The position numbers and the translations under genes are program-made. From NCBI GenBank assembly GCA_000092065.1, contig CP000594.1: a stretch of DNA of 64,000 bases; one strand, written 5' to 3'. This DNA is from Ostreococcus lucimarinus (Eukaryota). The notes under the pieces were generated by a model. It worked only from the letters and a program-made list of their open reading frames with translations. It was not told the DNA's origin and searched no databases. Positions 656 through 64,000 of this stretch are shown here, piece by piece; position 1 is the stretch's first letter; each line of letters opens with the position of its first letter.

Positions 656-2263
656 CTACTTTCTGATTGCTCTAAGTTCGTCATGCATTTCACCCAGTCG
701 TTCGGCCTCAGCCGTCAGCTGCTTCACGTCGCCGATCGACAGCGCATCCGCTTCAATTTTAGGAAGCATGACGACGCGTCGCGCCTTGTGAAGCGCCTCG
801 ATGGCGTGCTTGAACTCGCCTTCGGGCTTCGGAGGAATCCAGGCGCCACCGGTACGGGTACGTACGGCGAGCGACGCAACATCCTCGGCGAGCGACGCGA
901 CGGCACGCCGGACGTCGGATACAAGCGTCTGGTCGGGTGTGTTCAACGCTGTAGGCATCGGCGGGCATCGCGTACGGCATCGCCGCGGGCGGCTGGTTGT
1001 ACATCCACCATTGCGGCGGCGGCGGGCGTTCCGACGAACTGCGCGGCGTTCGGAGTCCTCGGTGGTTCCGGTGGTTGTGGTGGTTCCGGCGCTTGCTGCG
1101 TCAGTGGCCTCGGCACTCGAATGCGCGACTCGCGCCGTTCGTTCGTTCATCGCGGTTGCGTCCGTGAGGTGTTCGTCAACGCTCTTCGCACCTGAAACAG
1201 CTGCCTCTTTTCCATCTTTAGCCGAAGGCTTCTTCATTCGCAAAACCGTGACGTCGTAGAGCACAAAGTCTGTTTCAGTCTCGGGCGCGAGGATCAGTCG
1301 TCGACAGTCCTTTCGACAACCGATGATACCGCGTGCGAGCGCTTCGGGTAAGCCCGAATCGTCGTCGCCGATTCGTTTCACTTTCAAACCCGCGACGCGC
1401 TTCGACGTTTCGTCGAACAACTGCAACGCCAAAAAGTCATACGGCTCGCTCGCCGGCGGTAAACCACCTCGGACGGCTTCATAGTTCAGCTGCACGCTAT
1501 CACCCTTTTCCAAAGTCGCACCACCGCTTGAAGAAGATTTCTCTGTGCTAATATCTAAGACGATTGCCTCGAGGCTCTCGCGACGCGCGACAAACTGCGC
1601 GATGGTGATTTGCGCCGCCACCGCCAGCCAATCGCTCTCGTCACGCGTTAAAGCGCTGAATAAAATCGCGTCGTCGTGATGAATCGTCACGTAATTATCT
1701 CTCTGCAGCTCGCACGTCAGACGCGCGTCGATGACTCGTCGTACGAGCGGTCGTTTTTCGACGTCGTAAACGAGCAAACTTCGCTTGCTCGCCGACGCGC
1801 AGTCTAAAATAGCCAATCCGGCCGCGCCCACGGCGACGTACTCGCCATCTTTGAATCGGTAGACCTGCGACAACGACGTTCCGAATCGCAAGCGCTCGGC
1901 TTCGGTTCCGCTCGCCGACGCCGAGACGGACGAACACTCTCGCGCCGAGTCTGAACGGGCGTCGTCATCCAAGACGACCGCGGAGGACGATGAAGCCTCG
2001 CGAACGTCGTCATCCGTATCAATCGCGTCGTGCATGACGTTCGCTTCACCCTCTGCGACAGCATCATCGACGACTCCGCCGATTTCGTCATCATCGAGAA
2101 CACCATCATCGTGTGCAGCTTCGCCGGCCGTCGTCTCCTCGTGCGCAGCGTCGCTAGCCGTCGTCACCTCGATCGGGACGGCATCGACGTCGACATCCTC
2201 GTCGCCGAATAATCGCGATCGACGCTTCGAACGCTCTCGCCCACCAGGGTCGTTCGCGGGCAT
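656..2263 (-). CDS. Hypothetical protein, Arg-rich and low-complexity in its C-terminal third; the first gene inward from the telomere
   Basis: Continuous minus-strand ORF 656..2773. The first in-frame ATG (MPANDPGG) is at 2263. The middle region (FKDGEYVAVGAAGLAILD...DFLALQLFDETSKRVAGLKVKRIG...DFVLYDVTVL) reads as a genuine folded domain, but I do not recognise the family. Confidence 0.4.
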   Translation of the reverse strand: MPANDPGGRERSKRRSRLFGDEDVDVDAVPIEVTTASDAAHEETTAGEAAHDDGVLDDDEIGGVVDDAVAEGEANVMHDAIDTDDDVREASSSSAVVLDDDARSDSARECSSVSASASGTEAERLRFGTSLSQVYRFKDGEYVAVGAAGLAILDCASASKRSLLVYDVEKRPLVRRVIDARLTCELQRDNYVTIHHDDAILFSALTRDESDWLAVAAQITIAQFVARRESLEAIVLDISTEKSSSSGGATLEKGDSVQLNYEAVRGGLPPASEPYDFLALQLFDETSKRVAGLKVKRIGDDDSGLPEALARGIIGCRKDCRRLILAPETETDFVLYDVTVLRMKKPSAKDGKEAAVSGAKSVDEHLTDATAMNERTARVAHSSAEATDAASAGTTTTTGTTEDSERRAVRRNARRRRNGGCTTSRPRRCRTRCPPMPTALNTPDQTLVSDVRRAVASLAEDVASLAVRTRTGGAWIPPKPEGEFKHAIEALHKARRVVMLPKIEADALSIGDVKQLTAEAERLGEMHDELRAIRK

Positions 2264-2499: not shown

Positions 2500-4392
2500 A
2501 TGGCTGGCGATGACGTGGTGGGGACGAGTGACAACGTCGACGTCGAAGCGTTCCAGTCGCGCGATCGCGTGAATTGGGCCGACGACGGTGACGCGGCGAG
2601 CTCGTCGGACTCGGACTGGCTCGAACACGACAAAGCCGACGAAAGCTCCCTTGGAATCGATGTGATTCGTCGATTGATGACGGCGAACGAACATGACGAA
2701 AACGTGGAATGGGCGCGCGTGAATCAGTCGGCTTCACGGCTCGGCACAATGCGACAACAAGAGATCCTTGCATTGGAACGTGCGACCGCGAAGAAACTGC
2801 GTAAACACAGGCGGAGGACGAAAGTCACAAGCAAAAGCAAAGCACGAATCTTATCCTCCGAAACGTCAAGAATGGAGCTTCCTGAATCCACGGTTTTGAC
2901 GTTGACGTCGGCCAAAGAGTCAGCGAAGAGGATCGTATCAATCAGGGACGATATCGAGGTGGTGATTCACGACGTCCAGACCAGCGGCGGCGTGTACAAA
3001 TCATCGCATAAAAAAACGTTCGTGCAAATAGCGTGGAAGGAAAAACGAAATGCAACTCGCAAGGTCAAGACACGGAGAATAGAGGGTACAGAGAATCCAT
3101 CTTGGGACGCGCAAGGGAAGTTCATCTTTCAGAATTGTCGGGCGAATGCGGCTGGCAGCAAATTCGTCATCAAACTAAAGGAAGTGCGCTGGTTTAAAAG
3201 AGAAACAGTCGTTGGTTACGCAAAGATTCCGAGTACTTTGGTTCCATTGGATGGGACGAAGTTGAAGCTTCGCATCGCGCTCGTGACGAAAAGGCACAGA
3301 GCCAAGGCTGTGCTGAGCATGACAATCGGAAAAGCGACGTTTGAGGAGCCAGCGCTGGGGGAGGGTGGACACTTTCCCGTCGTCACCGGCGCCGAACAAG
3401 AACTCGTCTCATTCGAAGGAAACTTTCCCTCCAGGCGCGAAAAATTAGACTTGATGGTTGTTAACGTGATGAGCGCTCGCGGCGTATTCGACGCCGATGG
3501 GTTCGGTACGAGCGACGTGTTCATCAGACTCGGTTTCGACACTACGCCCATCGAAGAACGCTACCAAACTACGATTAAGTACCGCACTCGCAATCCTGAG
3601 TGGAACGAGCGTTTCTTGTTGCGTGTACCAAGCGTCGATGCAGCTAGGGGCGAACCCAAAGCAATCGTGTTCACGGTGTGGGACAAGGACAGATTCTCGC
3701 CGAGCGACTTCCTTGGGGCCGCCGCTATTCCACTCGACCGTGTTTCGACTACTGGCAGCGTCGCGGATTTGGACATGGATTTGAAGGCTAGAATTGCGCC
3801 GGACCTCGCGGGTGAGGTGTGCTTCATCCATCCACGCGCACCCGCAGATTTGGGTAAACTTCGAGTCAAGGTTTCGGCGCTCATCAGTGACGCCGCCGAA
3901 ACAATCGCAAAGACAGTCAATTTAGGAAGGATAGATCCCACTGAAGGCACAAGTCTGGCTACGAGCGTACACGTCGCCGTCATCGCGGCGAGAAAGTTGT
4001 TACATGTTGACACCAAAGGGTCCTGCGATGCTTTCGCGTACGTGCGAATGGACAATGCGCCCAAGAATGAATTCTGCAGGACAGATACAATCGCAAACAC
4101 GCTCCATCCCGTGTGGAACAACGGCATGGGAAAGACCTGTTCTCTCATCGCTCGTCCGGGCTCTGGAGATGTCTTGTTTCAATTGTACGATCGCAACCTG
4201 CTTAGCAAAACGCTCATGGGAACTGCGTCGGTGTCGTTGGCGTCTCTGCCTCCAGATGGTTCATGGACACAAATCGCAACTCCAGTTTATGGCCAGGACA
4301 AGAATCGAAACACTCTCGTCGGCGGTTCGGACAGTTCCATGGCATGGAACGCTCCAGAGAGAGTGAAGGGTGAAACTCATCGTTCGCCTTAG
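2500..4392 (+). CDS. Multiple-C2-domain protein, N-terminal segment; probably the same gene as 4370..7339 (MCTP/QUIRKY-like)
   Basis: Real ATG at 2500. C2-domain signatures are present (GTSDVFIRLGFDTTPIEERYQTTIKYRTRNPEWNERF...VWDKDRFSPSDFLGAAAIPL, plus a second C2 at DAFAYVRMDNAPKNEFCRTDTIANTLHPVWNN). The frame ends at 4392, and the downstream frame continues the same kind of protein. Confidence 0.55.
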   Translation: MAGDDVVGTSDNVDVEAFQSRDRVNWADDGDAASSSDSDWLEHDKADESSLGIDVIRRLMTANEHDENVEWARVNQSASRLGTMRQQEILALERATAKKLRKHRRRTKVTSKSKARILSSETSRMELPESTVLTLTSAKESAKRIVSIRDDIEVVIHDVQTSGGVYKSSHKKTFVQIAWKEKRNATRKVKTRRIEGTENPSWDAQGKFIFQNCRANAAGSKFVIKLKEVRWFKRETVVGYAKIPSTLVPLDGTKLKLRIALVTKRHRAKAVLSMTIGKATFEEPALGEGGHFPVVTGAEQELVSFEGNFPSRREKLDLMVVNVMSARGVFDADGFGTSDVFIRLGFDTTPIEERYQTTIKYRTRNPEWNERFLLRVPSVDAARGEPKAIVFTVWDKDRFSPSDFLGAAAIPLDRVSTTGSVADLDMDLKARIAPDLAGEVCFIHPRAPADLGKLRVKVSALISDAAETIAKTVNLGRIDPTEGTSLATSVHVAVIAARKLLHVDTKGSCDAFAYVRMDNAPKNEFCRTDTIANTLHPVWNNGMGKTCSLIARPGSGDVLFQLYDRNLLSKTLMGTASVSLASLPPDGSWTQIATPVYGQDKNRNTLVGGSDSSMAWNAPERVKGETHRSP

Positions 4393-7339
4393 CGCAACAA
4401 GAGAACCTTTCGCGAATGCTCCCAAACCGCCGCCCATATCCGAAATTGATAGATACGTCGTACATCACGAAACCAACAAATACTTGTACGTTCAGGGCAT
4501 GACATACGAAGGGTTACCGATTCGTCACGGCGCCAAGAGCACAAATATGCAGATCCGCATGTCGCTCAACACGCATAAGGATATAGTCTACGGAAGCGTG
4601 CAAAGGGGTGTGATGTCTAACTTTCACTTTGATCCCGAAGTCGCGGTGTTGCCGAAGACGACTCTAAGTCGGACATTGACGATTCAGGTTGTCTCAGAAC
4701 TGAAGAGTGTGTACGGCTCGCACACGTTTAGAAAGGCCTCGCGGAAAGTATTGAACTTGATGGGACTTGAGAAAAAGAAAGAGGATGATTTGTTCACATT
4801 AAACGAGACGAATGGAGACGTAAACGTCAATCAAAGCGATGACGATGAAGACGCAGACATTCAGTACGCGCAGAGTGATGAGATTTTTGTGAAAGGGAGT
4901 GCCATCGGTTACGTGCAGATTCCCGTCGAAGACTTGCTCGTCGGAGACTTGGTGCGAAAAAAGTTGAAACTCAAGCCGATGATGATGACAAAGTCCTGGC
5001 TCAAGATGAAGGAAGACCAATTGGGCGAAATAGAAGTCATGATTGGCTGCGGTTACTCGAAATTGGCACCGAAGGACTTGGAATTGATCAGCCAAGTCGC
5101 AAGACCGACGATCGGGAAGTTCTCATTCAACATCGCCTCCGTCGTTGGCGATCGAACGCCGTATCAACATGTCGCACCGATCATCGACAGCGTGCTCTCC
5201 ATGACTGATGAAAACGAGAAGTTTGGACGACATGTATACGCGACGGTGATGTGGGATGGTCGCGAAGAGAACATTAAATCTTCGCAAGAACGTTTCAACT
5301 TTTCCATAACGGAAATTTCTGGCGAAATCAGGGTACTTTTCAAGTGCCCGGATGCGATCAGTGGTGGCGAGCAGATTCTAGGCGCGATTTCGATTCCAAT
5401 CTCCAGCGTTCTCAAAGCGCAGGGTAGCTCCATCGATGCTTGGTTTAACATCACGCCTCCAAATCCAGCATTTCTGACGGAAAATGAAATGGCTGACCCG
5501 AGTCACGCCATGTGCGTGTACGCGCGTTCGAGTAATAATCCAAACGACTGGCAAGGTTTCGCTCGCATCAGGCTTTCTTTCGTACCAAAGGGTGGTAGCG
5601 CGCCGTGGGAGTGGTATCTCAAACAATCACCGATGGGGGTGAAGACGGCGCACATACCGGATACCATCGATGGTGTGCTCTTGAGTCTGCGGCATTTCGT
5701 CGAGTCTGTGCTCCTTCCCGCCAAGACGTTTGCAAGGGCGGCGATTTTCTACTCAAAGCCAGAGAGTCGATTGCTCAAGCTTTTATGGTTTGCGTATCAT
5801 ACCACGTGTTGCGCAGTGTTTCAATGTAAAATGGTGAGTACATTCATACTTTTATGGATAGTTCCTGGCTTGTTTTACACTGGTTTCTGCTCAAGCATCG
5901 TCGTCAGCGAGATTTGGTCAAACGTGTCTGCGTTTAAAGATGATGACGATGAGCTTGAAGCGTTGCGCGTTGAAGTCAATAAGATGGCTAAGATGCGAAA
6001 CAAAAAGATTCGCGAATTTAGAGATAAAACTTTGGAAAAGTGGAGATTGAAGAAGTTGCTTAGCCAAGGTCGCGACGTGACCATCTCGAGCGACGCCGTG
6101 AACGAAGGTGTAAGACGTCGCAAAGCAAAGCGCGCTCGCTTGGGTGTCGACGACGAACTTCCAGCGGTGGCGACCGTGTTTTTGCCGCGAAATATGATGA
6201 ACTACGTCATTGCTGTGGTCACGTCGTCGAATCCCGCAGAAATCGTGTTGAGGGCTATCAAAAAAATTGTTTGGAAATTACTCAATGTGATAAAAGGCGC
6301 AAGCGTCAAGTTGGTGCGAATTGACAAGGTACTCGCGTCTGGTGGCCCTCGAGTCATGCCAGGTCTGTGTCGGCGCGTGGGTGTAGAGTTGGAAACACTC
6401 GCAGATAAGTTTGGCCGACCCACACAGTTGGTTTCGTGGGGAAATACCACTTTGACCATGTATTTCTCGCTACTCACGTGCGCGCTGACGTTAGCGTTCT
6501 GTTGCGCTCTCTTTGCGTTGCAGCAATTCTTTGCATTTATCGACCATTACTCTCCTCTGCGCATCTGGCACGTCATCTGGTTCATCGGAATCGCGCCTAC
6601 TTTACCGTTTTTGAGTGAACAAATGTTGCAAGCAGCGGTAGCGCTCGACACGGGCATGCAGCTCTTCGTCGGTCTGTACGTGCCTGTGCGGCCAATTTCT
6701 CTCGTCACCATAAAAGCGATCAAACAGTCGCTCGACATCCAACTCACAGATAACTGTAAAGTTTTGTACGAAACGGTGAAAAAGGAAGTGAATGCGGAAA
6801 TCACGAACCGAGAGCTTTTGAGACGAAAGCAAGAGGCGGAAAAACTGGGCGCTTCGCAGAGAAATTTCTGCAAGAACAGATCGAATCCGATCGCCTGGCT
6901 AGCTTCGGCAATTCAACGCGCGCCGACGGAACGGGACATGATGCACGAAGCACGTATGCGCGCGCTCATGGTTCCTGGGCACGCACACCCACCCGATGTA
7001 TCGATTTTCCGAGAAAATGTCGACGTGAGACGCGCCTCCGCCTACGCGCTCGGAAAGCTGCTCGCGTTCGCCATCGCCATTCCCATCAGAGCGCTCAACG
7101 CGCCCATGGGCGTGATGAAAATGTCTAGCGAGAAACGGTTGGATGCATATGATGCGTGCACGCAACTGTGCGCTCTCAATTGGCTGCGTTACGAGTCCCG
7201 AGGCAATCTCCCCTTCGGACACCGCAAAACCGTCGTCACACCGATGGCCGCCGACGGCATTGAACGCTCGCCCGCGGGCGCTCGCATCGTCGACGTCGTC
7301 GACGAAGACATGACGAAATCAAGCATCGAATCGACATAA
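4370..7339 (+). CDS. Multiple-C2-domain and transmembrane-region protein, C-terminal segment (MCTP-like); frame-shifted continuation of 2500..4392
   Basis: Open frame from 4370 (a GTG, not a real start) to the TAA at 7339. It has further C2-like regions and several hydrophobic segments near the C-terminus (LLTCALTLAFCCALFALQQFFAFIDHY, IWHVIWFIGIAPTLPFL). The locus is lower in GC (about 50%) than its flanks. Confidence 0.5.
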   Translation: MKLIVRLSATREPFANAPKPPPISEIDRYVVHHETNKYLYVQGMTYEGLPIRHGAKSTNMQIRMSLNTHKDIVYGSVQRGVMSNFHFDPEVAVLPKTTLSRTLTIQVVSELKSVYGSHTFRKASRKVLNLMGLEKKKEDDLFTLNETNGDVNVNQSDDDEDADIQYAQSDEIFVKGSAIGYVQIPVEDLLVGDLVRKKLKLKPMMMTKSWLKMKEDQLGEIEVMIGCGYSKLAPKDLELISQVARPTIGKFSFNIASVVGDRTPYQHVAPIIDSVLSMTDENEKFGRHVYATVMWDGREENIKSSQERFNFSITEISGEIRVLFKCPDAISGGEQILGAISIPISSVLKAQGSSIDAWFNITPPNPAFLTENEMADPSHAMCVYARSSNNPNDWQGFARIRLSFVPKGGSAPWEWYLKQSPMGVKTAHIPDTIDGVLLSLRHFVESVLLPAKTFARAAIFYSKPESRLLKLLWFAYHTTCCAVFQCKMVSTFILLWIVPGLFYTGFCSSIVVSEIWSNVSAFKDDDDELEALRVEVNKMAKMRNKKIREFRDKTLEKWRLKKLLSQGRDVTISSDAVNEGVRRRKAKRARLGVDDELPAVATVFLPRNMMNYVIAVVTSSNPAEIVLRAIKKIVWKLLNVIKGASVKLVRIDKVLASGGPRVMPGLCRRVGVELETLADKFGRPTQLVSWGNTTLTMYFSLLTCALTLAFCCALFALQQFFAFIDHYSPLRIWHVIWFIGIAPTLPFLSEQMLQAAVALDTGMQLFVGLYVPVRPISLVTIKAIKQSLDIQLTDNCKVLYETVKKEVNAEITNRELLRRKQEAEKLGASQRNFCKNRSNPIAWLASAIQRAPTERDMMHEARMRALMVPGHAHPPDVSIFRENVDVRRASAYALGKLLAFAIAIPIRALNAPMGVMKMSSEKRLDAYDACTQLCALNWLRYESRGNLPFGHRKTVVTPMAADGIERSPAGARIVDVVDEDMTKSSIEST

Positions 7340-7444
7340 TATACTTCTACGATTACAATTCTTGATACATTTCTAGTAATGCGGCAAATAGTACAAACTT
7401 GTAACACCACGCACGCACGCACGCACACGCGCGCCGCGAACCAC

Positions 7445-10702: not shown

Positions 10703-12301
10703 ATGGACGCCCCTAAACCGATCGCCGCGACGACGCACACCGTCGACGATGAGACCGTCACGCTCGCGCAGCGTCGCCAGGCGCAGAGTTCGTTCCTCGC
10801 GCGCGTCGCCGGCGGTGTGTTAGTCCTCACCGTGTTGGTTGGGTGGCGGTTGATGATTGGCCTCAACACGCTCGCCATCGATCCTCGGACGATGAAGATG
10901 CGGCAGGACTTTGCGGGGTTGGTGAACGCGCGAGACCTCGCGCGCGAGCGCGCGTCATCGTCGTCTACGCAGGCGATGCGCGCGACGAAACGTCTCGCCG
11001 AGAACGCGAGCGCGAGCGCGGCGACCGCGCCGACGAAGAACGCACCGACGAAGAACGCCGCCGAGCCCGGCGACTTCTCGTCGTCGTTGCGTCGACTGCA
11101 AGGCATGGAGGAGGACTTGGACTTCATCGGGCGCGCCGGCGTGCCAGACGCAGGACGAAAAAATCCGTGTTGGACGACTGGCGACTCGACGCCGCCGATG
11201 TGTTTGCCGTACTTTTACATCCTCGGCGCGTGGCAGAGCGGGACTGAGGAATTAGGCTCAAGACTTCTCGCGGGCGCGCCCACGGTCGGCGTCGTGCGCG
11301 CGCCGCATTTTTGGAACGAACACACGAAGACGCTCGAAAATTACGCAAATACTTTCGCGAGCGTCGCGACGATGGAGAGAAACGTCGTCGCGGGCGACGC
11401 CTCGCCCGGATACCTCGCGACGTCGTGGAGCGAATCCATACGGTTTCATCGAGCGTACTTGGATCACATGCGAGATTGTTGGGCGGAGTGTCAAACTAAG
11501 AGCTCAAAGTTTGAAGACGACGAGAGCGCGAAGGACACGGCGGATGAAGACGCGGCGCGACGAGGGACGTCGCGCGCGTCGCCGCGTAGAAGATGCATCG
11601 ACGGCGTGGAAGGGGATCCCAAAGCGCCGGGATGCGTAGGAGAGGCGAACGCAAAGGATCCTTACGACGAGAGCGGCGGGCACGGGCTATCGCTTCCGCA
11701 TCTGATGTCAACGGTGTACGGTTCGTCACCGCCGCGTTTCGTCGTTATCGTACGCGAACCGGGCGCGCGCCTGCATTCGGCGTTTTGGCATTACGAACAT
11801 TACAAGAAACAATATGGTGCCAACGAAGACGGTTTCGCGGCGTACGCGGAACAGATGATGACGATGTTTCAAAAGTGTCTCGACCGAGGCAATCCGTTGA
11901 GAGGATGCGCGAATCGTTTTGAGACGTATTCACCCGAGTTCGAAGCCGTGTTTTACCACGCCGACGCGCTGATCAAATCCATGTACGACGTCTTCCTCGA
12001 AACGTGGCTCGATGTTTTCCCGCGCGAGTCCTTCCTCGTCGTCAAGGGCGAAGATTTATGGAGCGACGACGTCAACACGTCAACAGCGGCGATGCGTCGC
12101 GTGCTGAAGCACTTGGACCTCGACGCGAGCGACGAAACCGCGCGACGTCTCGCGACGATGAACGCGACGTCGAACGACTGGCGATTCGCGCGAGACGATC
12201 CCGAACGCGTCATGCGCGACGACATTCGCACGAAACTGGACGCGTTTTTCGCCCCACGGCTCCAGCGATTGGCGACTCTCGTCGGCGAAGACCTCTATTG
12301 A
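10703..12301 (+). CDS. Type II membrane sulfotransferase-like protein
   Basis: N-terminal transmembrane anchor (GGVLVLTVLVGWRLMIGL). The C-terminal sulfotransferase-like region is RFVVIVREPGARLHSAFWHYEHY...FLVVKGEDLWSD. The first ATG is MDAPKP at 10703. Confidence 0.5.
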   Translation: MDAPKPIAATTHTVDDETVTLAQRRQAQSSFLARVAGGVLVLTVLVGWRLMIGLNTLAIDPRTMKMRQDFAGLVNARDLARERASSSSTQAMRATKRLAENASASAATAPTKNAPTKNAAEPGDFSSSLRRLQGMEEDLDFIGRAGVPDAGRKNPCWTTGDSTPPMCLPYFYILGAWQSGTEELGSRLLAGAPTVGVVRAPHFWNEHTKTLENYANTFASVATMERNVVAGDASPGYLATSWSESIRFHRAYLDHMRDCWAECQTKSSKFEDDESAKDTADEDAARRGTSRASPRRRCIDGVEGDPKAPGCVGEANAKDPYDESGGHGLSLPHLMSTVYGSSPPRFVVIVREPGARLHSAFWHYEHYKKQYGANEDGFAAYAEQMMTMFQKCLDRGNPLRGCANRFETYSPEFEAVFYHADALIKSMYDVFLETWLDVFPRESFLVVKGEDLWSDDVNTSTAAMRRVLKHLDLDASDETARRLATMNATSNDWRFARDDPERVMRDDIRTKLDAFFAPRLQRLATLVGEDLY

Positions 12302-12658
12302 GAACATTGATTTGTATTGTACAACACCCGCGCGCGCTTCGCTCGCCTCGCCTCGCCTCACCGCGTCGGCGTCACCACACCGATCGCTCGCTCCACCCGT
12401 CGTCCTCTCGCCGTCGTCGTTCGCTCGCTCCAAAACGCGCCGTCGCGCTCCGGCGCCCCCACGTTCGCCGCGCTCGTCTCGCCGTCGCTCATCGCCCACG
12501 CGCTCGCGCTCGCCCCGATCACCAGCGCGCACACCGCCAAAACGCTCGCGCACCGCGCGAACCTTTCCATCGCGCGTCTTCCCGCGCGTTCGCGCGTCTT
12601 CTCGATCCCCATCGCGTCGTCGTCGTCGCCGACGTCCCACGCCGCGTCGCACGTCCAT

Positions 12659-12696
<38 letters not shown>

Positions 12697-13311
12697 GCGC
12701 TCGCGGTCGCGCGTCGTCGCGGGCTTCGATCGCGTCAGCATCGTCGCGCGCCGCGCGATGCCGCGTCTCGGACGACGACCGACGACGCGTCGTTCGCCCG
12801 CTCGACGCGCGCGCGACGACCCGACGACGGACGACGGCGAAAAAGACGAACGGCGGCACGGCGGAACGGCGGAACGGACGGATGGAAACACGGACCCCTG
12901 GGGTTTAGTGAGGGTGGTGATTCGACGACGTCGCCCCCGCCGGCGCGTCACTCCGCGCGTGCGATCGACGACGACGATGCGGCGATGGCGCGAGGCGACG
13001 ACGACGCTCGAACGCGTCGCGTCCGCGTCGGCGCGATGCGCGGCGACGGCGTCGACCTCGCGGGCGACGATCGCGGCGACGACGCGGGCGGCGAGCGCGG
13101 CGACGACGCGGGCGACGGCGACGCGGGCGGCGAGGAGCGTCGAGACGACGACGGTGGCGACGCGAGCGATTGCGGGACGCGCGACGAGGGACGCTGCGCG
13201 CGGCGGCGGCGACGCGCGGACGACGAGGTCGAAGGCGCTGGGCGGCGGCGGCGGCGGCGGCGCTGGGCGGCGCGGCGTTATTCCACGGGCTGGGCGCGGT
13301 GTTTAGAACGA
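12302..13311. repeat. About 1 kb GC-rich low-complexity tract of triplet microsatellites, (GTC)n and (GGC)n among others
   Basis: (GTC)12 near 12661-12700 and (GGC)7 near 13240-13262. All six frames are open but encode only R/A/S/D-rich junk. It lies between the sulfotransferase stop and the first ATG of the ABC1-kinase frame. Confidence 0.6.
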
Positions 13312-16926: not shown

Positions 16927-18579
16927 TCACCGTCGCTCGCGCGGTGTGGACACGTGCGCGAGCGAGATTTTCGCAAACGCCGCGCTCGTAGCGACGTCTT
17001 CCATCTCGACCCGGCGCGCCTCGGCGAGCTTATACGCGCCCTGCAGGATTCTTTTGATACCCAGACGCCACGTGATGGCGAGCTTCAAGTTTTCGCTTCC
17101 GTCTTTCCACCCAAGGAGTGTTTCCTCGTCACTTTTTGCCGTCGTCGGAAAGCTCAACAGCCGCGCGGCGGCGGCGTCTCGAATCGCGGCGAACGCTTCG
17201 CGCTCGGCATCGCGACCGAGCGCACCACCTCTGCGCGCGACGTCTCGCATTTCTTTTTCGTTCATTCTCACGGACGAACGCTTTTTCGCGAACGCGATGC
17301 GCGCGTCGGCTAAATCGTCCCAATCGAAGCCGCCGACGAAGACTTTCAGGGACGTCGTGGTCTCGGCGCCGTCCACGGGGACGTCCAGGGCGTAGTAATC
17401 TTGAGGGTTCTCGTTCGGTCCGAGCGTGAATCCGTAAAACTCGAGAAGTTCCAGGTTGGTGTACTCGCCGTAGCACACGAAAATTTCCTCATCCGCGGCT
17501 ATCGACCGACGGCCGTCGGGCTGGCGCGCGGCGCGAAACGCAAACGTTTTCGATTCTTCGTCCCACGCCCCGTCTCCCGGTATCGGGTCCGTCGCGACCT
17601 CTCTTGACGACGCCGACGTCGTGTTTCCTTCGTTCACGCCGAACGCCGGCGCGCCGAGGACGTCGATCAAGATGGGCGGATCGTGCGGCGCGTAGTTGAA
17701 CATGTCGCCCATCGGACACAACGCGCCCGCCTCGTGAAACGGCACGGAGACCGCGCGCGAACTCACGGTCGCGCGCGCCCACTCGTATAACGCGAACGCC
17801 TCTCGCTCGTCTTCGCCGACGATGTCCACGACCTCTTTCTTCACGTCCTCGAACGCCTTCCGCAACGCCTCGCTCGCGCGCTTCGCCGTCGTCTCGGCGC
17901 GCGCGTCCTGCAGCGCCGCTCGCTCCTCCTCCGACCACGTTTGCAGCAGATTATACCGCGCGGGCATCGACGCGACGTACGGCGCGAACGCATCGCTCGC
18001 TCCCGCGCATCGGTGTCGCAGCAATTTCAACGCCAGCTCGTCCGTCGGCTTCATCTTTACCCTCGCGTCCTCGCTCGCGTCTCGCGCGTCGCACGCGATC
18101 ATCGCGTCGCGCGGCGCGACGATCAAGTTTTTCGTCTCCCGCGTCGCGCCGTCGATCGTTTCGCGCGCGAACACGCCTCTCCGCGTCGTCGTCCCCGTCG
18201 TCGCGCGCGCCGTCGTCTCGCGCACGCGCAGCGCGTCGTCGTTCCACGACACCCCTCGCGCGCGCGCCCATCGCGCGAGCGCCGCCGTCGCGTCGTCCGT
18301 CGTCGTCGTCGTCGTCGGTCGCGCCGTCGCGTCGGTCGCGTCGCCGAGTCGGCCGGTCGCTCGGTCGTCGGCGTCGACGTCTGGTTCGCCGACGGCGCGC
18401 GCGATTCGAACTTTTTCGCGACGCGCCAATCCATCCGACGCGGCGCCGTCCAGGGTGCGATTGGATTTGAAATCGTCGCTCGCGACGCGACGCACGTCGA
18501 CGCGAGTCCGCGGTGACGCGCGCGCGCGCGGTGATCGCGCGCGCGCGATTCGGTGCGCGCGCGCGTCCCGGACCGCCAT
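16927..18579 (-). CDS. SET-domain protein-lysine methyltransferase, Rubisco-LSMT/SETD3-like, probably plastid-targeted
   Basis: SET region TTRRGVFARETIDGATRE...LIVAPRDAMI...HEAGALCPMGDMFNYAPHD. The LSMT-like substrate-binding signature is EEIFVCYGEYTNLELLEFYGF. The start is taken at MAVRDARAH (18579). Confidence 0.7.
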   Translation of the reverse strand: MAVRDARAHRIARARSPRARASPRTRVDVRRVASDDFKSNRTLDGAASDGLARREKVRIARAVGEPDVDADDRATGRLGDATDATARPTTTTTTDDATAALARWARARGVSWNDDALRVRETTARATTGTTTRRGVFARETIDGATRETKNLIVAPRDAMIACDARDASEDARVKMKPTDELALKLLRHRCAGASDAFAPYVASMPARYNLLQTWSEEERAALQDARAETTAKRASEALRKAFEDVKKEVVDIVGEDEREAFALYEWARATVSSRAVSVPFHEAGALCPMGDMFNYAPHDPPILIDVLGAPAFGVNEGNTTSASSREVATDPIPGDGAWDEESKTFAFRAARQPDGRRSIAADEEIFVCYGEYTNLELLEFYGFTLGPNENPQDYYALDVPVDGAETTTSLKVFVGGFDWDDLADARIAFAKKRSSVRMNEKEMRDVARRGGALGRDAEREAFAAIRDAAAARLLSFPTTAKSDEETLLGWKDGSENLKLAITWRLGIKRILQGAYKLAEARRVEMEDVATSAAFAKISLAHVSTPRERR

Positions 18580-19692: not shown

Positions 19693-21063
19693 CTAACGTT
19701 TTCTACTTCGCTGTTCTCGGAGTTCGTTCTCGCATCGCTCGCATCGACACACAAAGCCGTAATCGCACAGCTCGTCGTTTCGCTCGTCGCGCGACTTCGA
19801 GGCCTCGTCTGATACGTACGAGATCGTCAACTCTTCCCCGGCTGCGATATCGCGCCGCGCGATGATGACGCACGCGCCGTCGATGTCTTCCTCTCCCTTC
19901 ATCGGCTCACAGTTCGGGTCGCAGTCGTGATTGAATCCGGATTGTACGGAGAACAACGCGCTGCCGAGGAGCGGAATGTCGTACTCCGTATCCAAGGCGT
20001 CGAGCAGTGGCTGCGTGACGCGCATCGCCGCTCGCTTCTCTTCACCATCTGGCGCCGCGTCGATCGCGAGAAAGTAATTCTCAACCGGGCTCTCCACGAC
20101 GAGCTCGAGGTTGTTCAGTTCAAACGCTCCGATGAGTCTGCCGTACGTCTCGAGCGTGAAGAATCGCGGCCAAGCGTTCGCCGTTTCGCCCCAAGCCGAT
20201 CGAAGCAAGTCCAAAGAGTCTTGCGCGAGCGTTCGCAACGTCGTGCGGAATTCCATTTCCGCGCGCTCGTCTTCGCAGTCGTGCGGCGTCGCCACGCTTT
20301 CCCACCAAGGCGCGTTGGCGACGACGGCGAACGGCAGGCGCGCAAAGTCTTCCGCCGCCGAAGCGTCCCGCTCGATCTCCTTTCCGCTCGACCCGTCGTC
20401 TCGATCTCTCGCGCTCGCCCGCGACGCTCGCGCGCACATCGTCGCCACCGCCTTGGCCGCTAAAATAAATATATCGTTCGTCTCCCTCGCGTGCGCGTAA
20501 AATTCATCCAACGCCCGCTTATTCGTCGCCGTCCCCTTCTCTCCCGGACACATGAGCGACTCTCTCTCGCGCCACGCCTCGGACGCGCACGCCTCGGAGC
20601 AGTACACGTTTCGCGCGCACGCGCCCAAACATCCAACTTCACGCGGTCCATCGAACGCATCCGCGCCCGGAAGCGTCGCCTCACCGCTCGCCAGCTTCAC
20701 CAAATCCTCGCGCGTCGTCGGTTTCGGCGGCGCCGCGTTCGCGTACTTTTCCAGCAGCCTTCGTCCGACCGCGCTCGACACCGTCCCGACGTATCGATGG
20801 CAATTTTCGCACGCGCGCGCGTGTTTCACGTTTTCCTCGTGCTGCGCTCCCACGAGCGCGCGCTCGATCATCACGCACTCGCCTCGCTCGAACGCGCGCG
20901 TCGCGAAGACGCCTCGACCTCCGCCTCGACGTTCGCGCGCGCGCGCGACGGCGACGTCGCACGCCGTCATCGCGCCGTTCGACGCGCGCGCGCGACACCG
21001 CGCGATCGCGCATCGCCAGTGTTCGTCCACCGCCGCGCGCGCGTCCGCGCCCACCGGCTCCAT
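19693..21063 (-). CDS. SET and MYND domain (SMYD-like) protein
   Basis: N-terminal SET region GRGVFATRAFERGECV. MYND zinc finger CENCHRY...CLGACARNVYCSEAC. C-terminal SET motif GFNHDCDPNC...ELTISY. The start is taken at MEPVG (21063). Confidence 0.7.
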   Translation of the reverse strand: MEPVGADARAAVDEHWRCAIARCRARASNGAMTACDVAVARARERRGGGRGVFATRAFERGECVMIERALVGAQHEENVKHARACENCHRYVGTVSSAVGRRLLEKYANAAPPKPTTREDLVKLASGEATLPGADAFDGPREVGCLGACARNVYCSEACASEAWRERESLMCPGEKGTATNKRALDEFYAHARETNDIFILAAKAVATMCARASRASARDRDDGSSGKEIERDASAAEDFARLPFAVVANAPWWESVATPHDCEDERAEMEFRTTLRTLAQDSLDLLRSAWGETANAWPRFFTLETYGRLIGAFELNNLELVVESPVENYFLAIDAAPDGEEKRAAMRVTQPLLDALDTEYDIPLLGSALFSVQSGFNHDCDPNCEPMKGEEDIDGACVIIARRDIAAGEELTISYVSDEASKSRDERNDELCDYGFVCRCERCENELREQRSRKR

Positions 21064-21244
21064 GCGTCGACCCGAGTCGCGGAGTGCGACGCGAGACACA
21101 CTGCGCGACGCGACGCGAAGGATTGGGCGTCCGGTGGACGGTGGCGTTCGACACACCGCGACGCGCGTTCGCGCGTTCGACGCGTCGGAAGAGGACCGAG
21201 CGCGACGCGACGCGGACGGCGAGGCGCGATCGAACGCGCGCGCG

Positions 21245-22417
21245 ATGACGACGACGACGACGAACCACGCGCCGAGCCCGTCGACGCAGGAGGTGAAAAA
21301 GTTTACGCAAATTTGCGCAAAGTGCGCGAGACACACGGCGATCGTCGAGGACCACGCGTCGGGAGATTTGATATGCACCGAGTGCGGACTGGTGATCGAG
21401 TCGAGGATCATCGACGAGTGCTCGGAGTGGCGGACGTTCGGGGACGGGGATAAGGATCGCGGAGGCGCGGATCCGTCGCGGACGGTGGGGGCGACAAACG
21501 TCATGCTCACGGGCGGCGGGCTGAGCACGACGATCGGGAAGAATCCGGACGGGACGTACAACGCCACGCTGACGCGATTGCATAATCGAGGGATGAACCC
21601 GGACAAGGCGTTGATCAGCGCGTTTCACAGCATCGGGGAGTTCGCGGACGCGATGGGTATGAATCGAGTGGTGCGCGACGGGGCGTGCGATTTGTATCGA
21701 ATGGTGACGTCAGCGCACTCGACGTTGGGGAAATCGAACGTGGCGATGTACGCGGCGTGTTTGTACATCGCGGCGAGGCAAGAGGGGATGACGCGGACGT
21801 TTAAGGAGGTGTGCGGGGCGGCGCAAGGGACGACGGTGAAGGAAATCGGGCGGTGCTACAAATTCATCTTAAAGGTGTGCGATGGGTTAAACATGCAGAT
21901 GAACGAGCAGATGATCACGCCTGAATTACTTACGAATCGATTCTGCGGTAATTTGGGGATGAGCGATCACGACTTCTTAAAACTCTGCTCACACATCGTG
22001 CGAACGTTTAGAGAGCTGAGAGATTCCGAGGGGCACAAGAGCGAGAAGCAGCCGGCGTCCGTGGCGGCGGCGGCGATTTTCATCGCCTCCGTCGTGCGTG
22101 AAATGCACAAAGACAAGGCAAGCTTGTTTCGCATTTCCGAAGTGAGTGGGATGGCGGAGGTGACCATTCGAACGTCGTTTTTTGACATGGTGCCGTACGC
22201 GTCGAGGCTTTTGCCGTCGGCGCATCAGGGAAAATTAGCAGACTTGTTGACCGAGGCGGAGAAGATGCGCGAGGGATCTACGATGGCGCTGCCGTCACAC
22301 GCGACGAGACAATCATTCCATCCCGCTCCGCAACCCGCGGTGCCTTTGTTGAAACTCGAATTAGACGGCCCGATTGAAGTGCCCGGCGACGTCCTCATTA
22401 AAGAAGAATTGAAGTGA
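21245..22417 (+). CDS. TFIIB: Transcription initiation factor IIB
   Basis: N-terminal zinc ribbon CAKCARHTAIVEDHASGDLICTECGLVIESRIIDECSEWRTF followed by two cyclin-like repeats. The ATG is at MTTTTTNH. It lies divergent from the SMYD gene, 181 bp away. Confidence 0.85.
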   Translation: MTTTTTNHAPSPSTQEVKKFTQICAKCARHTAIVEDHASGDLICTECGLVIESRIIDECSEWRTFGDGDKDRGGADPSRTVGATNVMLTGGGLSTTIGKNPDGTYNATLTRLHNRGMNPDKALISAFHSIGEFADAMGMNRVVRDGACDLYRMVTSAHSTLGKSNVAMYAACLYIAARQEGMTRTFKEVCGAAQGTTVKEIGRCYKFILKVCDGLNMQMNEQMITPELLTNRFCGNLGMSDHDFLKLCSHIVRTFRELRDSEGHKSEKQPASVAAAAIFIASVVREMHKDKASLFRISEVSGMAEVTIRTSFFDMVPYASRLLPSAHQGKLADLLTEAEKMREGSTMALPSHATRQSFHPAPQPAVPLLKLELDGPIEVPGDVLIKEELK

Positions 22418-22432
22418 AATAACAAATTTCTA

Positions 22433-23995
22433 TTAGAGTTCTTTCTTGTCACCCACCTGCAAGCGCTCGCGGAAATCTTCCACCATCTTCGGCAAACCTT
22501 CGCGCAACGTGATTTTCGGCTCCCATCCGAGCGCCGTTTTGGCGAGCGTGATGTCCGGCTTGCGGCGCCCGGGATCATCCGCCGTGTTTTCCTTGAATTC
22601 GATTTTCGCATCCTTGTTCACGACTTCCTTGACGACTTCCGCGAGCTCGATCATGGTGAACTCGCCGGGATTCCCAATGTTCACCGGACCGATTTCGTTT
22701 TCGTTATCCATGAGCGCCATCAAGCCCGCGACCAAGTCGTCGACGTATTGAAACGAGCGAGTTTGTTTGCCGTCGCCGTACACGGTGAGCGGCTCGCCGC
22801 GTAAAGCTTGGGAGACGAAGTTCGAAACGACGCGTCCGTCTTCGAGCGCCATGCGCGGACCGTAGGTGTTGAAGATACGCGCGATTCTGATGTCCACACC
22901 CTCTTGGCGGTGGTAATCAAAGCAAAGCGTCTCCGCCACGCGCTTGCCTTCGTCGTAGCACGAACGCACGCCGATCGGGTTGACGTTGCCCCAGTAGGAT
23001 TCCTTTTGCGGGTGCTCCAAAGGATCACCGTAAACCTCAGATGTGGACGTCAAGAGCATTCGTGCGCCCACGCGCTTAGCCAAACCAAGCATGTTGAGCG
23101 TTCCCATAACCGAAGTCTTGATCGTTTTCACGGGATTGTGCTTGTAGTGCACCGGAGACGCCGGGCACGCGAGGTGATATATTTGATCCACCTCGACGAG
23201 CATGGGCTCGACGACGTCGTGTCGAATGAGCTCAAAGAAGGGGTTTTGCAAGTGGTGCATGATATTTTCTTTGCGACCGGTGAAGAAGTTGTCGGCGACG
23301 ATGACGATGTTTCCGCGCTCCATGAGTCGGTCGACGAGGTGCGAGCCGACGAAACCAGCGCCACCAGTGACCAACACGCGCAAGCGCGTCGCCTTGGGAA
23401 TCGGCACGGGCATCGTCTTCGCCACGGTACCGCGTCCGACGGGTTCAGACGCACCGATTTCGCCGACAGTGGACGATTTAGACGCCGATTGACCGACGAC
23501 GCCGATTTCCGCCACATCCACGGACAACGCGCTCGCAACCTTGGACGATTTCGACGACGACTTCGACGACGACTTCGACGACGGCTTCGACGACACCGCA
23601 TCTATCATCGTCGTCGACGCACGCACGTCGCCGTCCACCGCCTCGTCGCCGTCCACCGCCTCGTCGACGCCCACGACCTCGTCCTCGTTCTCATCCGCGA
23701 AGCTCGTCGTCGACTTTTTCGTTTCGAAAGTTTTCTCCATCATCGCCGACGCCCCCGTCGCTCGCGTTTCCTCGCCGTCGCGTCCTTCCTCCATCTTCAT
23801 CCCTCTTCCCTGCGTCGCGAATCGCGACGCGCCGACGTCGCCGTCGTCTCTCGCGTCTTCGTTCGCGCGCGCGTATCCTCGCTCCGTCGTCCCTCGCGGG
23901 CTCGTTCTCGTCCCGCTCGTCCCCGCGGCGCACACCAGCGCGATCGCGATGACGAGCATCAGCGCGCACGCGCGCGAACCTCGTCCGCGCGCCAT
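22433..23995 (-). CDS. UXS: UDP-glucuronate decarboxylase (UDP-xylose synthase), type II membrane form
   Basis: [18 protein letters not shown]...[11 protein letters not shown]...catalytic YxxxK, highly conserved end to end. N-terminal signal anchor [25 protein letters not shown] plus a Ser/Lys-rich stem. Confidence 0.9.
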
Positions 23996-24305
23996 CTTAT
24001 CGCGCGCGCGTCCGAGAATCTTATGAATCACCGACGACGATCGCGTCGCGGATAGCCTCGTCGACGGCGTCGCGTCGCGCGTCGCTCGCGCGCGATCGGG
24101 CGTCGACGCGCGTCGGGCGTCGGCGCGGTCGTTCGCGTCGTTCGCGTCGTCCGGGGCGCGTCGCGCGCTCGATGACGGGCGATTCGCACCGAGTCGCATG
24201 CGCGCGCGTGTGCGGGAAAGTGTCGGAAAAATGTCCGGAAATCTCCGAGCGGCGGCGACGCGCGGTCGGATTACGCGGAGACTACGCGAATGGATCACAA
24301 GGGCG

Positions 24306-24351
24306 CTAGGAAGAGGGTCGGGCGGAGACGGGGAGGAGCGTGACGGCGTCA

Positions 24352-24389
<38 letters not shown>

Positions 24390-56393: not shown

Positions 56394-56477
56394 GTTACGC
56401 GAGTGGGTCGTCGCTTGAGTCATGAACCCTCGATGGTTACGCGAGTGGGTCGTCGCTTGAGTCATGAACCCTCGATG
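56394..56477. repeat. Perfect 42-bp tandem duplication in the SPRY / glucosidase-II-beta divergent region; each copy carries an ATG
   Basis: GTTACGCGAGTGGGTCGTCGCTTGAGTCATGAACCCTCGATG x2. Copy 1's ATG opens a 12-codon uORF (MNPRWLREWVVA*). Copy 2's ATG (56464) is in frame with the downstream gene. Confidence 0.85.
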
Positions 56478-56541
56478 GTTGATTTGTTTCGCCTTTTCGG
56501 TCGTGGCACACGAACCGCACTTCGCGACGCCTCGACCGACG

Positions 56542-60628: not shown

Positions 60629-60750
60629 GAGACGGTGAAGAGGCGACGAATGAAGTCTGTTGTGTTGTCAAAGCGTCGAGGCGAGTCGATGTTCTATCAT
60701 CATTGTAGACGTCTATCATTGTAGGCTATCATCGTTGTAGACGCTTCTTG

Positions 60751-63700: not shown

Positions 63701-64000
63701 TCGACGCGCACGACTTCACTCAAGCCAAGTTTCTTAATCGTGCGCTGCCTATGCGCTACCTCCGTCGTTTGAATGTCATCTTTCAGCGCCTCGATAAAAG
63801 CCGCATCCTCGGCGCTCGCCGGATCAAATGGGTAGTCAATGTGAAACAGAATCTTGTCTGGCGGACGTTCCGTCACACTCCACGCGATCTCGCGCACGAC
63901 GCCTTCGCCGTTACGAACGACGTTATCGACGATCGCATTGATACTTTTCTTGTCGACAGCCTTATACAATCCGCCTTCGGCGGCGGCGAGCCACGTGCTC
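60751..64000 (-). CDS. Large conserved-looking hypothetical protein, 5'-partial (more than 1080 aa; the N-terminus lies beyond the window edge)
   Basis: The frame is open from the stop at 60751 to the window edge. Composition is non-repetitive and globular-looking. An acidic Ser/Asp stretch (DESDDSDEDDVSDYDDSDVDEE) is present. GC is about 50%. No family confidently recognised. Confidence 0.45.
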   Translation of the reverse strand, partial: STWLAAAEGGLYKAVDKKSINAIVDNVVRNGEGVVREIAWSVTERPPDKILFHIDYPFDPASAEDAAFIEALKDDIQTTEVAHRQRTIKKLGLSEVVRVEPMQALPAPPASAIATRDVVMEDDVDIRSNYRTLHDFHAIGLGYIKSALVRLEALHLYLVANVFERGSEDGAINGDVLDGSMPISIYIKVVNSTESKSIVAQDLEHIKAEGLREKLVKDLPRELRDKVQSTYYMSRLTQRLMTLGLLYEVPQYNEATESIELVLTLRKSARFQTKPADTEDESSWSENFDVTTETGAREYWSALENTFKGKPEMDNAHPAIDFTYPRITSVRAWNRKWALSLDNCIILMDRLREAWDALLHLLLVRAEVSTKDEHLNDGSASENKSLVGAAIESLAESGLPNEDALRVEQLAQDLDLPDDLNHIKQTWRNFCYAKICAAVTDGVVSSDVAARALNMYAHYSRFKVSSRVSQRSIMPPANTARAPTLRLDSLSHIESPSSALAKENIDDSRVAPQELFDDDESDGEFGVTTSRKKFIFGPSEDEFLVFCMIRFIALSGTNALRAEKRDYRASVVYSDPMWRSRYPVVKKRTVVKRWRQLTVGEGEDEGDIKTQRHDAILRIGAEFYERGARARRDSALPHLPSPTPDSSEAIDRWDEIWDCTGKWSEGIAKQVLQATRAVLHDFPVPYPLSRRDVPKSPRHGNRMRQKREEKVRRIRAGRDLTEADDDIILARLAPIAFLRRRAISFQDESDDSDEDDVSDYDDSDVDEEITVPFKDLHDHVVPSPRVDALSYAQTLFDANAPNTVACIAPNGPQVLTLCQALVDNRVAMSTTTDSVGDSLPQAFNGQGAGDSTYFKSPNVAVKAMHSVKIEILDASKASAEVAVETVGTLRLPAKNLKNVESKCLKIVEKAGTAVPSQVIIDELRVAKVAETFGALGAYNVHHALGVLVSSGALRTETHENEIVYSMPSENAMDFADNAAFENCTRAAAAVALNQPGSSETRIVNALGKSYPIHLIARALNHLVDEGVLLERVTEKFFSVVPPVLGGSTMGDEENMAERHFFIADETSPKTTELLIGDSDFLV

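Follow-up and report, generated by a model that had tools for sequence, protein, structure and literature searches.

Low-GC stretches at a chromosome end of Ostreococcus lucimarinus as probable CpG troughs inside long genes

Three stretches of DNA near one chromosome end of Ostreococcus lucimarinus (assembly GCA_000092065.1, contig CP000594.1) are markedly poorer in G+C than the sequence around them, and the question they raise is whether such dips betray DNA of a different history or a property of the genes that contain them. The sequence analysed comprises 64,000 nucleotides and is referred to as the window throughout. The stretches, at positions 2800-7350, 52160-53440 and 60700-64000, sit one each in the three longest open reading frames (ORFs) of the window, which belong to the following genes.

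2500-7339, plus strand: intron-less gene of about 1,613 codons for a membrane protein with multiple C2 domains (the C2 gene), holding the stretch at 2800-7350
49640-56137, minus strand: lineage-specific repeat gene, about 2,165 codons long when counted from its first ATG, with beta-sandwich-like domains of about 167 amino acids, introduced as a SPRY gene in the preliminary description of this DNA
60751-64000, minus strand: TFIIIC-like gene corresponding to the stretch at 60700-64000; the 3' 1,082 of its 1,543 codons are present before it runs off the window end

The stretches are neither foreign DNA nor miniature outlier chromosomes. With reasonable though not full confidence, we take them for troughs in CpG density that arise within the longest three ORFs at this ordinary Ostreococcus chromosome end. 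A process acting at the DNA level would enrich CpG and weaken with distance from gene starts; genes of 4.6-6.5 kb would then yield long troughs, as their interiors, far from any start, reach a floor of G+C. The troughs would come from a largely known genome-wide regime.

GC landscape and CpG content of the window

The G+C content (GC) of the three stretches is 0.512, 0.479 and 0.528, respectively, compared with 0.626 in the rest of the window and 0.610 in the window as a whole. Each is the lowest of its size, the minimum reached elsewhere over 4.5 kb being 0.577. The preliminary description had placed these stretches at 45-52% GC in a background of 65-68%; they do exist as the lowest parts of the window, at a measured 48-53%, and the background amounts to 61-63%. 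Neither are they discrete islands in a flat background, as had been proposed. The whole window forms a sawtooth in which GC reaches 0.70-0.74 where genes begin (5') and drops to 0.53-0.56 where they end (3'); no other trough is as long or as deep as the three stretches. On every flank that lies inside the window, GC is back at 0.60-0.74.

At the level of genes, GC and GC at third codon positions (GC3) are 0.517 and 0.60 in the C2 gene, 0.530 and 0.58 in the in-window part of the TFIIIC-like gene, and 0.48 and 0.45 in the core of the repeat gene. The comparison set of 26 coding sequences (CDSs), consisting of the 25 other window genes and one repeat unit of the repeat gene, averages 0.630 +/- 0.042 and 0.755 +/- 0.064; per-gene statistics were taken on trimmed starts where gene calls on a close relative, contig L001, or domain positions allowed. 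Relative to this set, the three genes have z-scores of -2.4 to -3.6 in GC and of -2.35 to -4.8 in GC3. The effective number of codons (Nc) is 52-54.5 in these genes and 42 +/- 5 in their neighbours, and the use of NCG codons differs with p = 1e-7 to 1e-23, in agreement with the earlier suggestion of a deviating codon usage. Pooled with genes from related contigs (68 Ostreococcus genes in all), gene GC spans 0.516-0.746 and GC3 spans 0.55-0.92, and the C2 and TFIIIC-like genes are the tail of this continuum. The comparison of windowed GC and codon usage that had been recommended yields the lowest stretches and a distinct codon usage at the end of a continuous distribution.

The G+C heterogeneity of the window is mostly CpG heterogeneity. 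Across 1-kb windows, GC correlates with CpG density at r = 0.96, more than half of the G+C bases are part of CpG dinucleotides, and masking of the CpGs lowers the standard deviation of GC from 0.063 to 0.026. With CpGs masked, the background has a GC of 0.431 and the stretches have 0.402, 0.401 and 0.393, respectively, a contrast of 0.03-0.04 in place of 0.10-0.15. CpG density in the background is 0.171 per bp; 2-kb windows have a ratio of observed to expected CpG (o/e) of 1.3-2.0, and non-coding segments one of 1.6-2.1. The sawtooth of GC and CpG, with a CpG o/e of 1.3-2.1 everywhere, is seen in the window and in the related loci L002-L009 and L035.

Fourfold degenerate sites reveal how this CpG excess is distributed. 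In neighbour genes, the frequency of C at the third position is 0.54 before G and 0.16 otherwise (p = 3.5e-252), and G is used in 70-77% of cases after a second-position C. The third base is largely the one that forms a CpG with the adjacent base, including across codon boundaries. Because the choice depends on the next codon (54% versus 16%) and non-coding DNA carries a CpG o/e of 1.6-2.1, the CpG-making force works on DNA and not on codons. Divided by their capacity to form a CpG, fourfold sites have the following GC3.

CpG-capable sites: neighbours 0.82-0.88; C2 gene of the window 0.60-0.70; TFIIIC-like part 0.57-0.65
Non-CpG sites: neighbours 0.61; C2 gene of the window 0.61; TFIIIC-like part 0.51

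This context pattern recurs in orthologues of the C2 gene (L002, L003, L035) and of the TFIIIC-like gene (L007-L009). Codon by codon, usage falls from neighbours to islands for GCG (0.72 to 0.42), ACG (0.75 to 0.40), CCG (0.63 to 0.36) and TCG (0.43 to 0.24), and GCC, ACC and CCC show no fall. The synonymous deficit is expressed in the fraction of CpG-capable fourfold sites at which a CpG is made (the CpG-made fraction), which is 0.44-0.60 in the islands and 0.65-0.79 in the other genes.

CpG enrichment is strongest at gene starts. Averaged as a metagene over 72 genes, the CpG-made fraction is 0.79 in codons 1-50 and declines to about 0.66 beyond codon 300, while non-CpG GC3 stays flat at 0.58-0.66. 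CpG density aligned on the ATG declines from about 0.22 to about 0.13 per bp across 1.2 kb, and the 5'-to-3' gradient touches all codon positions. A three-parameter model was fitted on the rest of the window, GC = 0.541 + 0.163 exp(-d/850 bp), with d measured to the start codon that lies nearest (Spearman rho = -0.61, p = 2e-34). Since CpG enrichment decays and non-CpG GC3 remains flat, GC sinks to a floor of about 0.54 at more than 1-2 kb from any start. For the three stretches, the model gives the following values.

C2 stretch: model GC 0.572, observed 0.513, about 48% of the deficit explained
Repeat-gene core: model GC 0.544, observed 0.489, about 60% of the deficit explained
TFIIIC-like stretch: model GC 0.549, observed 0.526, about 77% of the deficit explained

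The genes that contain the stretches

The product of the C2 gene contains three Pfam C2 domains (E = 3e-36), and a profile of its family, compared with PDB, matches the C2 domains of synaptotagmin, dysferlin, myoferlin, otoferlin and MCTP2. Several C2 domains are common to this product and to the MCTP and ferlin proteins. The C-terminal module of these families (PRT_C in MCTP, FerI/FerB/DysF in ferlins) was not found in it, and its C-terminal 989 or 512 amino acids gave no Pfam match at E <= 0.1. As the C-terminal family module was not found, the product is not filed as a member of either family; we call it only a multi-C2 protein that has hydrophobic segments towards its C-terminus.

In the window, the C2 reading frame is interrupted at one position.

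4373-4375, plus strand: extra A in an A-run (GAAACTC, compared with GAACTC in relatives), splitting the C2 ORF into 2500-4392 and 4370-7339

The ORF is intact, at 1,612-1,618 amino acids, in every examined environmental copy of the same lineage, and the extra A is probably a homopolymer assembly error or a very recent strain-specific frameshift. An intron at the frame change was considered and rejected, since relatives read through with one A fewer. Pseudogene decay as the origin of the low GC was rejected likewise, since intact orthologues share the composition.

GC at codon positions 1, 2 and 3 of the C2 gene (GC1, GC2 and GC3) is 0.53, 0.42 and 0.60, its Nc is 54, and it has 96 CpG per kb versus 171 per kb in neighbours. 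With GC1 and GC2 of 0.63 and 0.51 in the neighbours, the deficit amounts to -0.10 at the first, -0.09 at the second and -0.155 at the third position, and about half of it (some 55%) is non-synonymous, at codon positions 1 and 2. The CpG-made fraction drops abruptly after about 150 codons in all lineages. Homologues comprise 11 protein clusters of 1,601-1,660 amino acids and 32 metagenome loci at 44-100% amino-acid identity, representing at least five lineages. In every lineage, the orthologues are single ORFs of 1,532-1,679 amino acids with a GC3 of 0.52-0.65, and GC1 and GC2 are conserved across them. At 16 of the 17 single-ORF loci scored, the C2 gene lies below the lowest flanking gene, the flank means of GC3 being 0.70-0.79; in the lineage at 44-46% identity, individual flanking genes have a GC3 of 0.63-0.76. 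Synonymous divergence (dS) between C2 lineages exceeds 1.2 or is undefined, that is, saturated, and the low GC3 has thus been kept at equilibrium independently in each lineage, with a composition that is stationary and not drifting towards that of the host. The part of the C2 shortfall that goes beyond distance decay is gene-specific, present in every sampled lineage, and not a historical relic.

The order C2-DnaJ-rhodanese is kept in related contigs. At locus L003, the C2 gene is internal, between OTCase and DnaJ, and the lineage at 44-46% identity has yet other neighbours. As the same deficit is present at the internal locus and at loci with other neighbours, telomere proximity is not the cause of the low GC. 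In the window (1-21600), the telomere is followed by an uncharacterised gene, C2, DnaJ and rhodanese and, further on, by ABC1, DTD, L37ae, RubSB, OTCase and SET; comparison with L003, L004 and L005 shows that gene order differs between lineages, and in L003 the genes from SET to OTCase form a block immediately upstream of C2, arranged differently. Owing to this difference in gene order from L003, we place a rearrangement in the window lineage that put C2 beside the telomere.

The in-window protein of the TFIIIC-like gene is 100% identical over the full query to P0072, a protein of 1,543 amino acids. Over its whole length, this gene has a GC of 0.563 and a GC3 of 0.63; GC3 drops from 0.89 to 0.51 and ends at 0.58, and the CpG-made fraction declines steadily from 0.82 to 0.45, which looks like the generic gradient continued. 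P0072 scores 14.3 bits against PF04182 (B-block_TFIIIC; cut-off 22) and 20.7 bits against PF24101 (GTF3C1 extended winged-helix; cut-off 30), and the family profile found no meaningful sequence match in PDB. The orthologue P0077 passes PF04182 (25.5 bits versus 22), and several orthologues carry precomputed PF04182/PF24101 matches. From these profile matches, the gene at 60751-64000 probably encodes the large subunit of TFIIIC (B-block-binding, GTF3C1/Tfc3-like). It is represented by 9 protein clusters, and its orthologues, at 48-100% amino-acid identity, have a GC3 of 0.62-0.66 in three lineages. The order PP1-TFIIIC-PaO-PRKCSH-KH is kept in contigs whose orthologues are 48-55% identical; the saturated dS is a result for C2, and the TFIIIC-like orthologues at this identity were judged on GC3.

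The repeat-gene core is a separate case from the C2 and TFIIIC-like stretches. It lies between two blocks of repeats.

49678-52139, minus strand: distal 2.46-kb block of 1,005-bp units; GC 0.607, GC3 0.80
52168-53437, minus strand: diverged core, amino acids 922-1345; GC 0.48, GC1/2/3 0.58/0.41/0.45
53452-55913, minus strand: promoter-proximal 2.46-kb block of 1,005-bp units, twin of 49678-52139

The twin blocks are about 99.8% identical, with about 4 differing positions, and two domains of the core are 35-40% identical to the repeat unit at the amino-acid level. The 1,005-bp units were missed by Tandem Repeats Finder, their period being above its limit, and were recovered by a separate repeat search. 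In Pfam, the product yields only a summed weak Laminin_G_3 (ConA-like) signal, and the repeat unit has no match among PDB sequences. GC1 and GC2 are 0.57 and 0.44 in the repeat units versus 0.58 and 0.41 in the core, and GC3 is 0.80 versus 0.45; within one ORF, GC3 drops on entering the core and regains 0.80 on leaving it, exactly where the blocks end. The same GC3 step occurs at the same place in the homologues L010 and L011, which belong to another lineage and are 61-64% identical in amino acids. At the fourfold sites of the core, GC is 0.34-0.37 in three of four sequence contexts; the repeat units have a GC3 of 0.82 even at non-CpG sites, versus 0.61 in ordinary genes. With hardly any exception among contexts, the synonymous GC of the core, about 0.35, is near the mutational equilibrium. 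In O. tauri, the mutational equilibrium GC is 36.8% versus 59% observed (PMC5455958). The core looks like an island partly because it lies between near-identical, GC3-rich blocks, and the context-independent GC3 of these blocks is the pattern that would be expected of GC-biased gene conversion (gBGC) between repeats. As the step lies in a single ORF, expression cannot explain it.

The repeat gene sits amid ordinary housekeeping genes, is absent at the syntenic site between PRKCSH and KH in L008 and L009, and has only two database relatives; its core has no relative among viral contigs. The closest relative of the core, 64% identical, lies on L010 (GCA_038116375.1, JAYNUQ010000082.1; 1,948 bp), which is filed under a metagenome-assembled genome of 'Candidatus Poseidoniales archaeon' and is probably a mis-binned picoeukaryote contig. 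A short-read contig of the same strain (L007) stops where the repeat gene starts. At the start of a PRKCSH-like gene (56464-58053), a 42-bp sequence is repeated perfectly in tandem (2.1 copies, 56394-56480), next to the repeat gene's 5' end.

The remaining content of the window is that of an ordinary chromosome end, and the position near such an end, which had been assumed earlier, is confirmed by the telomere repeat.

1-126, no strand: telomere repeat (CCCTAAA)n, read directly from the sequence, with which the window starts

L001 and L012, two independent metagenome contigs of the same lineage, open with (CCCTAAA)n about 2.4-2.6 kb upstream of the C2 gene. The window genes are compact, almost intron-less, ordinary nuclear genes, with products including DnaJ, rhodanese, ABC1 kinase, OTCase, SET, TFIIB, ARC6, Sec1, CCT chaperonin, PaO and glucosidase II beta subunit; a tRNA scan of the window found none. 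The gene nearest the telomere (656-2260, minus strand) is without a Pfam domain and is fast-evolving and subtelomeric: compared with its relative in L001, it has 92.8% amino-acid identity, a dS of 0.078 and a ratio of non-synonymous to synonymous divergence (dN/dS) of 0.68, and most of its neighbours are 98-99.7% identical with a dS of 0.005-0.026. In the 5' parts of several genes (12004-13000, 17822-18500, 20552-21300 and 22433-24352), many ORFs remain open over 250-330 codons ahead of the first recognisable domain. These long-open parts have a GC of 0.70-0.74, are rich in Ala and Arg and lie at divergent gene pairs, where ORFs on opposite strands overlap and the true start codons are uncertain.

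Weighing the explanations

Our reading of the stretches as CpG troughs in long ORFs would place them in the CpG-enriching regime of Dnmt5-methylated picoalgae, with dense methylation between nucleosomes. Huff and Zilberman reportedly showed in 2014 that CG dinucleotides are enriched under this regime. Mamiellophyceae possess DNMT5 (PMC9861306), and linker-confined methylation is mentioned, with reference to Huff & Zilberman 2014, in PMC5728721. The decay along genes may reflect a factor anchored at the transcription start site (TSS), for which nucleosome phasing with methylation or transcription-coupled repair would be candidates. A literature search returned no described 5'-to-3' GC or CpG gradient for Ostreococcus.

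Several observations count against this reading. GC and CpG density are partly coupled arithmetically. The distance model has an R2 of only 0.37 and leaves C2 with a residual of -0.059 and the core with one of -0.055, and the C2 gene lies below the metagene by the second hundred codons, which indicates that distance from the start is not the whole story. C2 orthologues elsewhere are somewhat lower at non-CpG sites too (0.50-0.60 versus 0.63-0.66). No nucleosome-scale CpG periodicity (150-200 bp) was detected, either by autocorrelation of typical genes, C2 and the TFIIIC-like gene or by ATG-aligned averaging over about 75 genes, and the link to linker methylation therefore receives no support from the sequence. 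The sample consists of one 64-kb window and about 0.5 Mb of related contigs, with about 70 genes in all, and contains no other gene of more than 900 codons, so that length alone is inseparable from gene-specific effects. Gene length in general correlates with GC3 at rho = -0.30 (Spearman) with the two long genes and at -0.08 (p = 0.50) without them, and finds no support as a predictor of GC3 outside these two.

Weak translational selection, under which rarely expressed genes drift to an AT-biased mutational equilibrium, fits the high Nc of the island genes, the heavier losses among the commonest codons (GCG, ACG and CCG, and not GCC, ACC or CCC) and the conservation of a gene-intrinsic property in orthologues, and codon bias does rise with expression in O. 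tauri (rho = -0.22 for Ncp; PMC3673656). Under tRNA-level selection one would not, however, expect the third base to depend on the first base of the next codon, nor non-coding DNA to have the same CpG excess, nor GC3 to change by 0.35 and back inside one ORF with one expression level. Moreover, GGT, weakly optimal in O. tauri, rises in the islands, and a preprint finds CDS GC to be negatively correlated with expression in this species (10.1101/2025.04.21.649811), and we hold this explanation to be unlikely. No more probable in our view is locally reduced gBGC or recombination, possibly promoter-initiated, which resembles the earlier proposal of relaxed gBGC or a different recombination history. 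In O. tauri, site-frequency spectra and a correlation of chromosome GC with recombination rate have led to the inference of gBGC (PMC5498103); in the window, GC at the first two codon positions and GC3 co-vary across genes (rho = 0.57, p = 0.002), the gradient reaches all codon positions, and the near-identical repeat blocks are GC3-rich even outside CpG contexts. A context-free gBGC should nevertheless lift every fourfold site, whereas non-CpG GC3 is flat along genes, without a 5'-to-3' gradient, and equal in the C2 gene and its neighbours, the deficit of C2 being mainly in CpG contexts. The same C2 deficit is also found beside the telomere and at an internal locus with other neighbours. Chromosome ends usually recombine more, not less, which counts against reduced gBGC as well, and the earlier proposal is not the best fit to the data. 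A composition driven by the proteins themselves, in which more Ile, Lys, Asn and Leu and less Ala, Arg and Gly lower the GC, is indeed visible in the island proteins: compared with neighbours, Ala is 9.2% vs 13.6%, Arg 6.4% vs 9.7% and Ile 5.5% vs 3.5%, and the low, conserved GC1 and GC2 of the C2 gene carry the non-synonymous half of its deficit. It leaves the synonymous deficit over (the C2 shortfall in GC3 and the lowered CpG-made fraction), and the core and its repeats have near-equal GC1 and GC2 with GC3 apart by 0.35. Protein-driven composition is insufficient alone, improbable as the full account, and a component of the best explanation.

The remaining alternative is that the stretches are foreign or recently relocated DNA, whether acquired by horizontal transfer, of viral origin, or consisting of former outlier (mating-type) genes not yet ameliorated. 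In the window their composition stands out as atypical, the repeat gene is nearly an orphan and lineage-specific in position, and more candidates for horizontal transfer have been reported in outlier regions (PMC3491373). Recent acquisition had been suggested for the C2 gene and the last gene, together with a comparison of their homologues. The orthologues fetched all lie on contigs of Ostreococcus type (GC 0.54-0.62) that share flanking genes with the window. Low GC3 beside GC3-rich neighbours is found in at least five C2 lineages and in three TFIIIC-like lineages and, in C2, persists despite saturated dS, and acquisition in recent times is rejected for both genes. The TFIIIC-like gene is probably a core eukaryotic housekeeping gene, small AT-rich introns are not present, and the repeat-gene core, without a relative in viral contigs, is homologous to its own flanking repeats. 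Foreign origin is effectively refuted for the C2 and TFIIIC-like genes, and we regard it as highly improbable for the stretches as a group.

Implications and comparison with known systems

As a tentative generalisation, which we consider possible at best, local composition in Ostreococcus might be set mainly by a promoter-anchored, CpG-enriching process that decays over about 1 kb and is tied to Dnmt5 methylation with nucleosome phasing or to CpG-directed mismatch repair; gene length and distance from the TSS, not recombination or expression, would then decide local GC. If this is true, the repeat gene would serve as a within-gene assay, in which a near-equilibrium core (about 0.35) faces blocks of context-independent GC3 (about 0.82) homogenised by gene conversion, and this contrast would separate gBGC from CpG enrichment in one transcript. 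If the CpG decay holds genome-wide, composition would be linked to the unusual linker-methylation chromatin of these algae, and the use of GC3 in them as a proxy for expression or recombination would change. Two features merit a genome-wide follow-up: the conserved step in GC3 within the repeat gene and the 5'-to-3' decay specific to CpG. As a practical rule, CpGs should be masked or CpG context conditioned on, and distance from the gene start corrected for, before GC or GC3 is interpreted, and a dip in GC confined to one gene on a standard Mamiellales chromosome is not to be taken for a miniature outlier region or a horizontal transfer.

The low-GC outlier regions of Mamiellophyceae, to which the preliminary description had likened these stretches, occur in the same organism group, lie about 10 points of GC below their surroundings and have a lower GC3, as the stretches do. 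Outlier regions measure 150-650 kb, are rich in small introns and are non-colinear between species (PMC3491373, PMC8557840); BOC1 is a candidate mating-type region on the big outlier chromosome, and SOC is the small outlier chromosome (PMC3491373, PMC8557840, PMC5498103). They span 70-630 genes and carry transposable elements, and SOC has species-specific genes. BOC1 is a contiguous low-GC region of 193-633 genes, whereas the stretches here measure 4.5, 1.3 and at least 3.3 kb, with one gene each. Its genes have many AT-rich introns of 40-65 bp and show little colinearity between species; here, the C2 and TFIIIC-like genes are single ORFs and their gene orders are conserved. SOC is low in GC over an entire chromosome of about 150 kb (O. 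lucimarinus chromosome 18: 149 kb, 53% GC), in contrast to a window GC of 0.61. A window protein shares its 90% cluster with XP_001421372.1 of O. lucimarinus CCE9901, which places the window in the O. lucimarinus clade, bears out the taxon assumed earlier and is encoded on a contig of 708,927 bp, unlike SOC. The genes of SOC are mostly species-specific, without orthologues and non-colinear. The C2 and TFIIIC-like genes are not of this kind, but a resemblance exists in the repeat gene. As intron-less single ORFs of 1.3-4.8 kb with normal-GC flanks and conserved gene order, the stretches do not bear out the likeness. A preprint reports that CpG methylation is lowered in outlier regions (10.1101/2025.04.21.649811), as would suit sequence poor in CpG. 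Elevated expression and spatial insulation are further features of BOC1.

With the expression-linked codon bias of O. tauri (Michely et al. 2013, PMC3673656), the window shares the variation of genes along a GC3 axis, on which the islands are weakly biased. Unlike that system, it displays a dependence on the neighbouring base across codons and an abrupt change within one ORF. In grasses and other plants, GC gradients run from 5' to 3', gene starts are GC-rich, and long genes are lower in mean GC and GC3; such gradients along plant genes are said to have been described by Wong and colleagues in 2002 and by Glemin and colleagues in 2014. The window is alike in its GC-rich gene starts and GC-poorer distal gene bodies. 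The plant gradients are usually put down to recombination and gBGC and concern GC3 in general, whereas the synonymous gradient here is confined to CpG-forming contexts. A further counterpart is the CG-enriched Dnmt5 regime of picoalgae, characterised by strong CpG over-representation, which the window displays in coding and non-coding DNA alike (o/e 1.3-2.1, up to 0.22 CpG per bp); synonymous base choice in the window is likewise governed by CpG formation.

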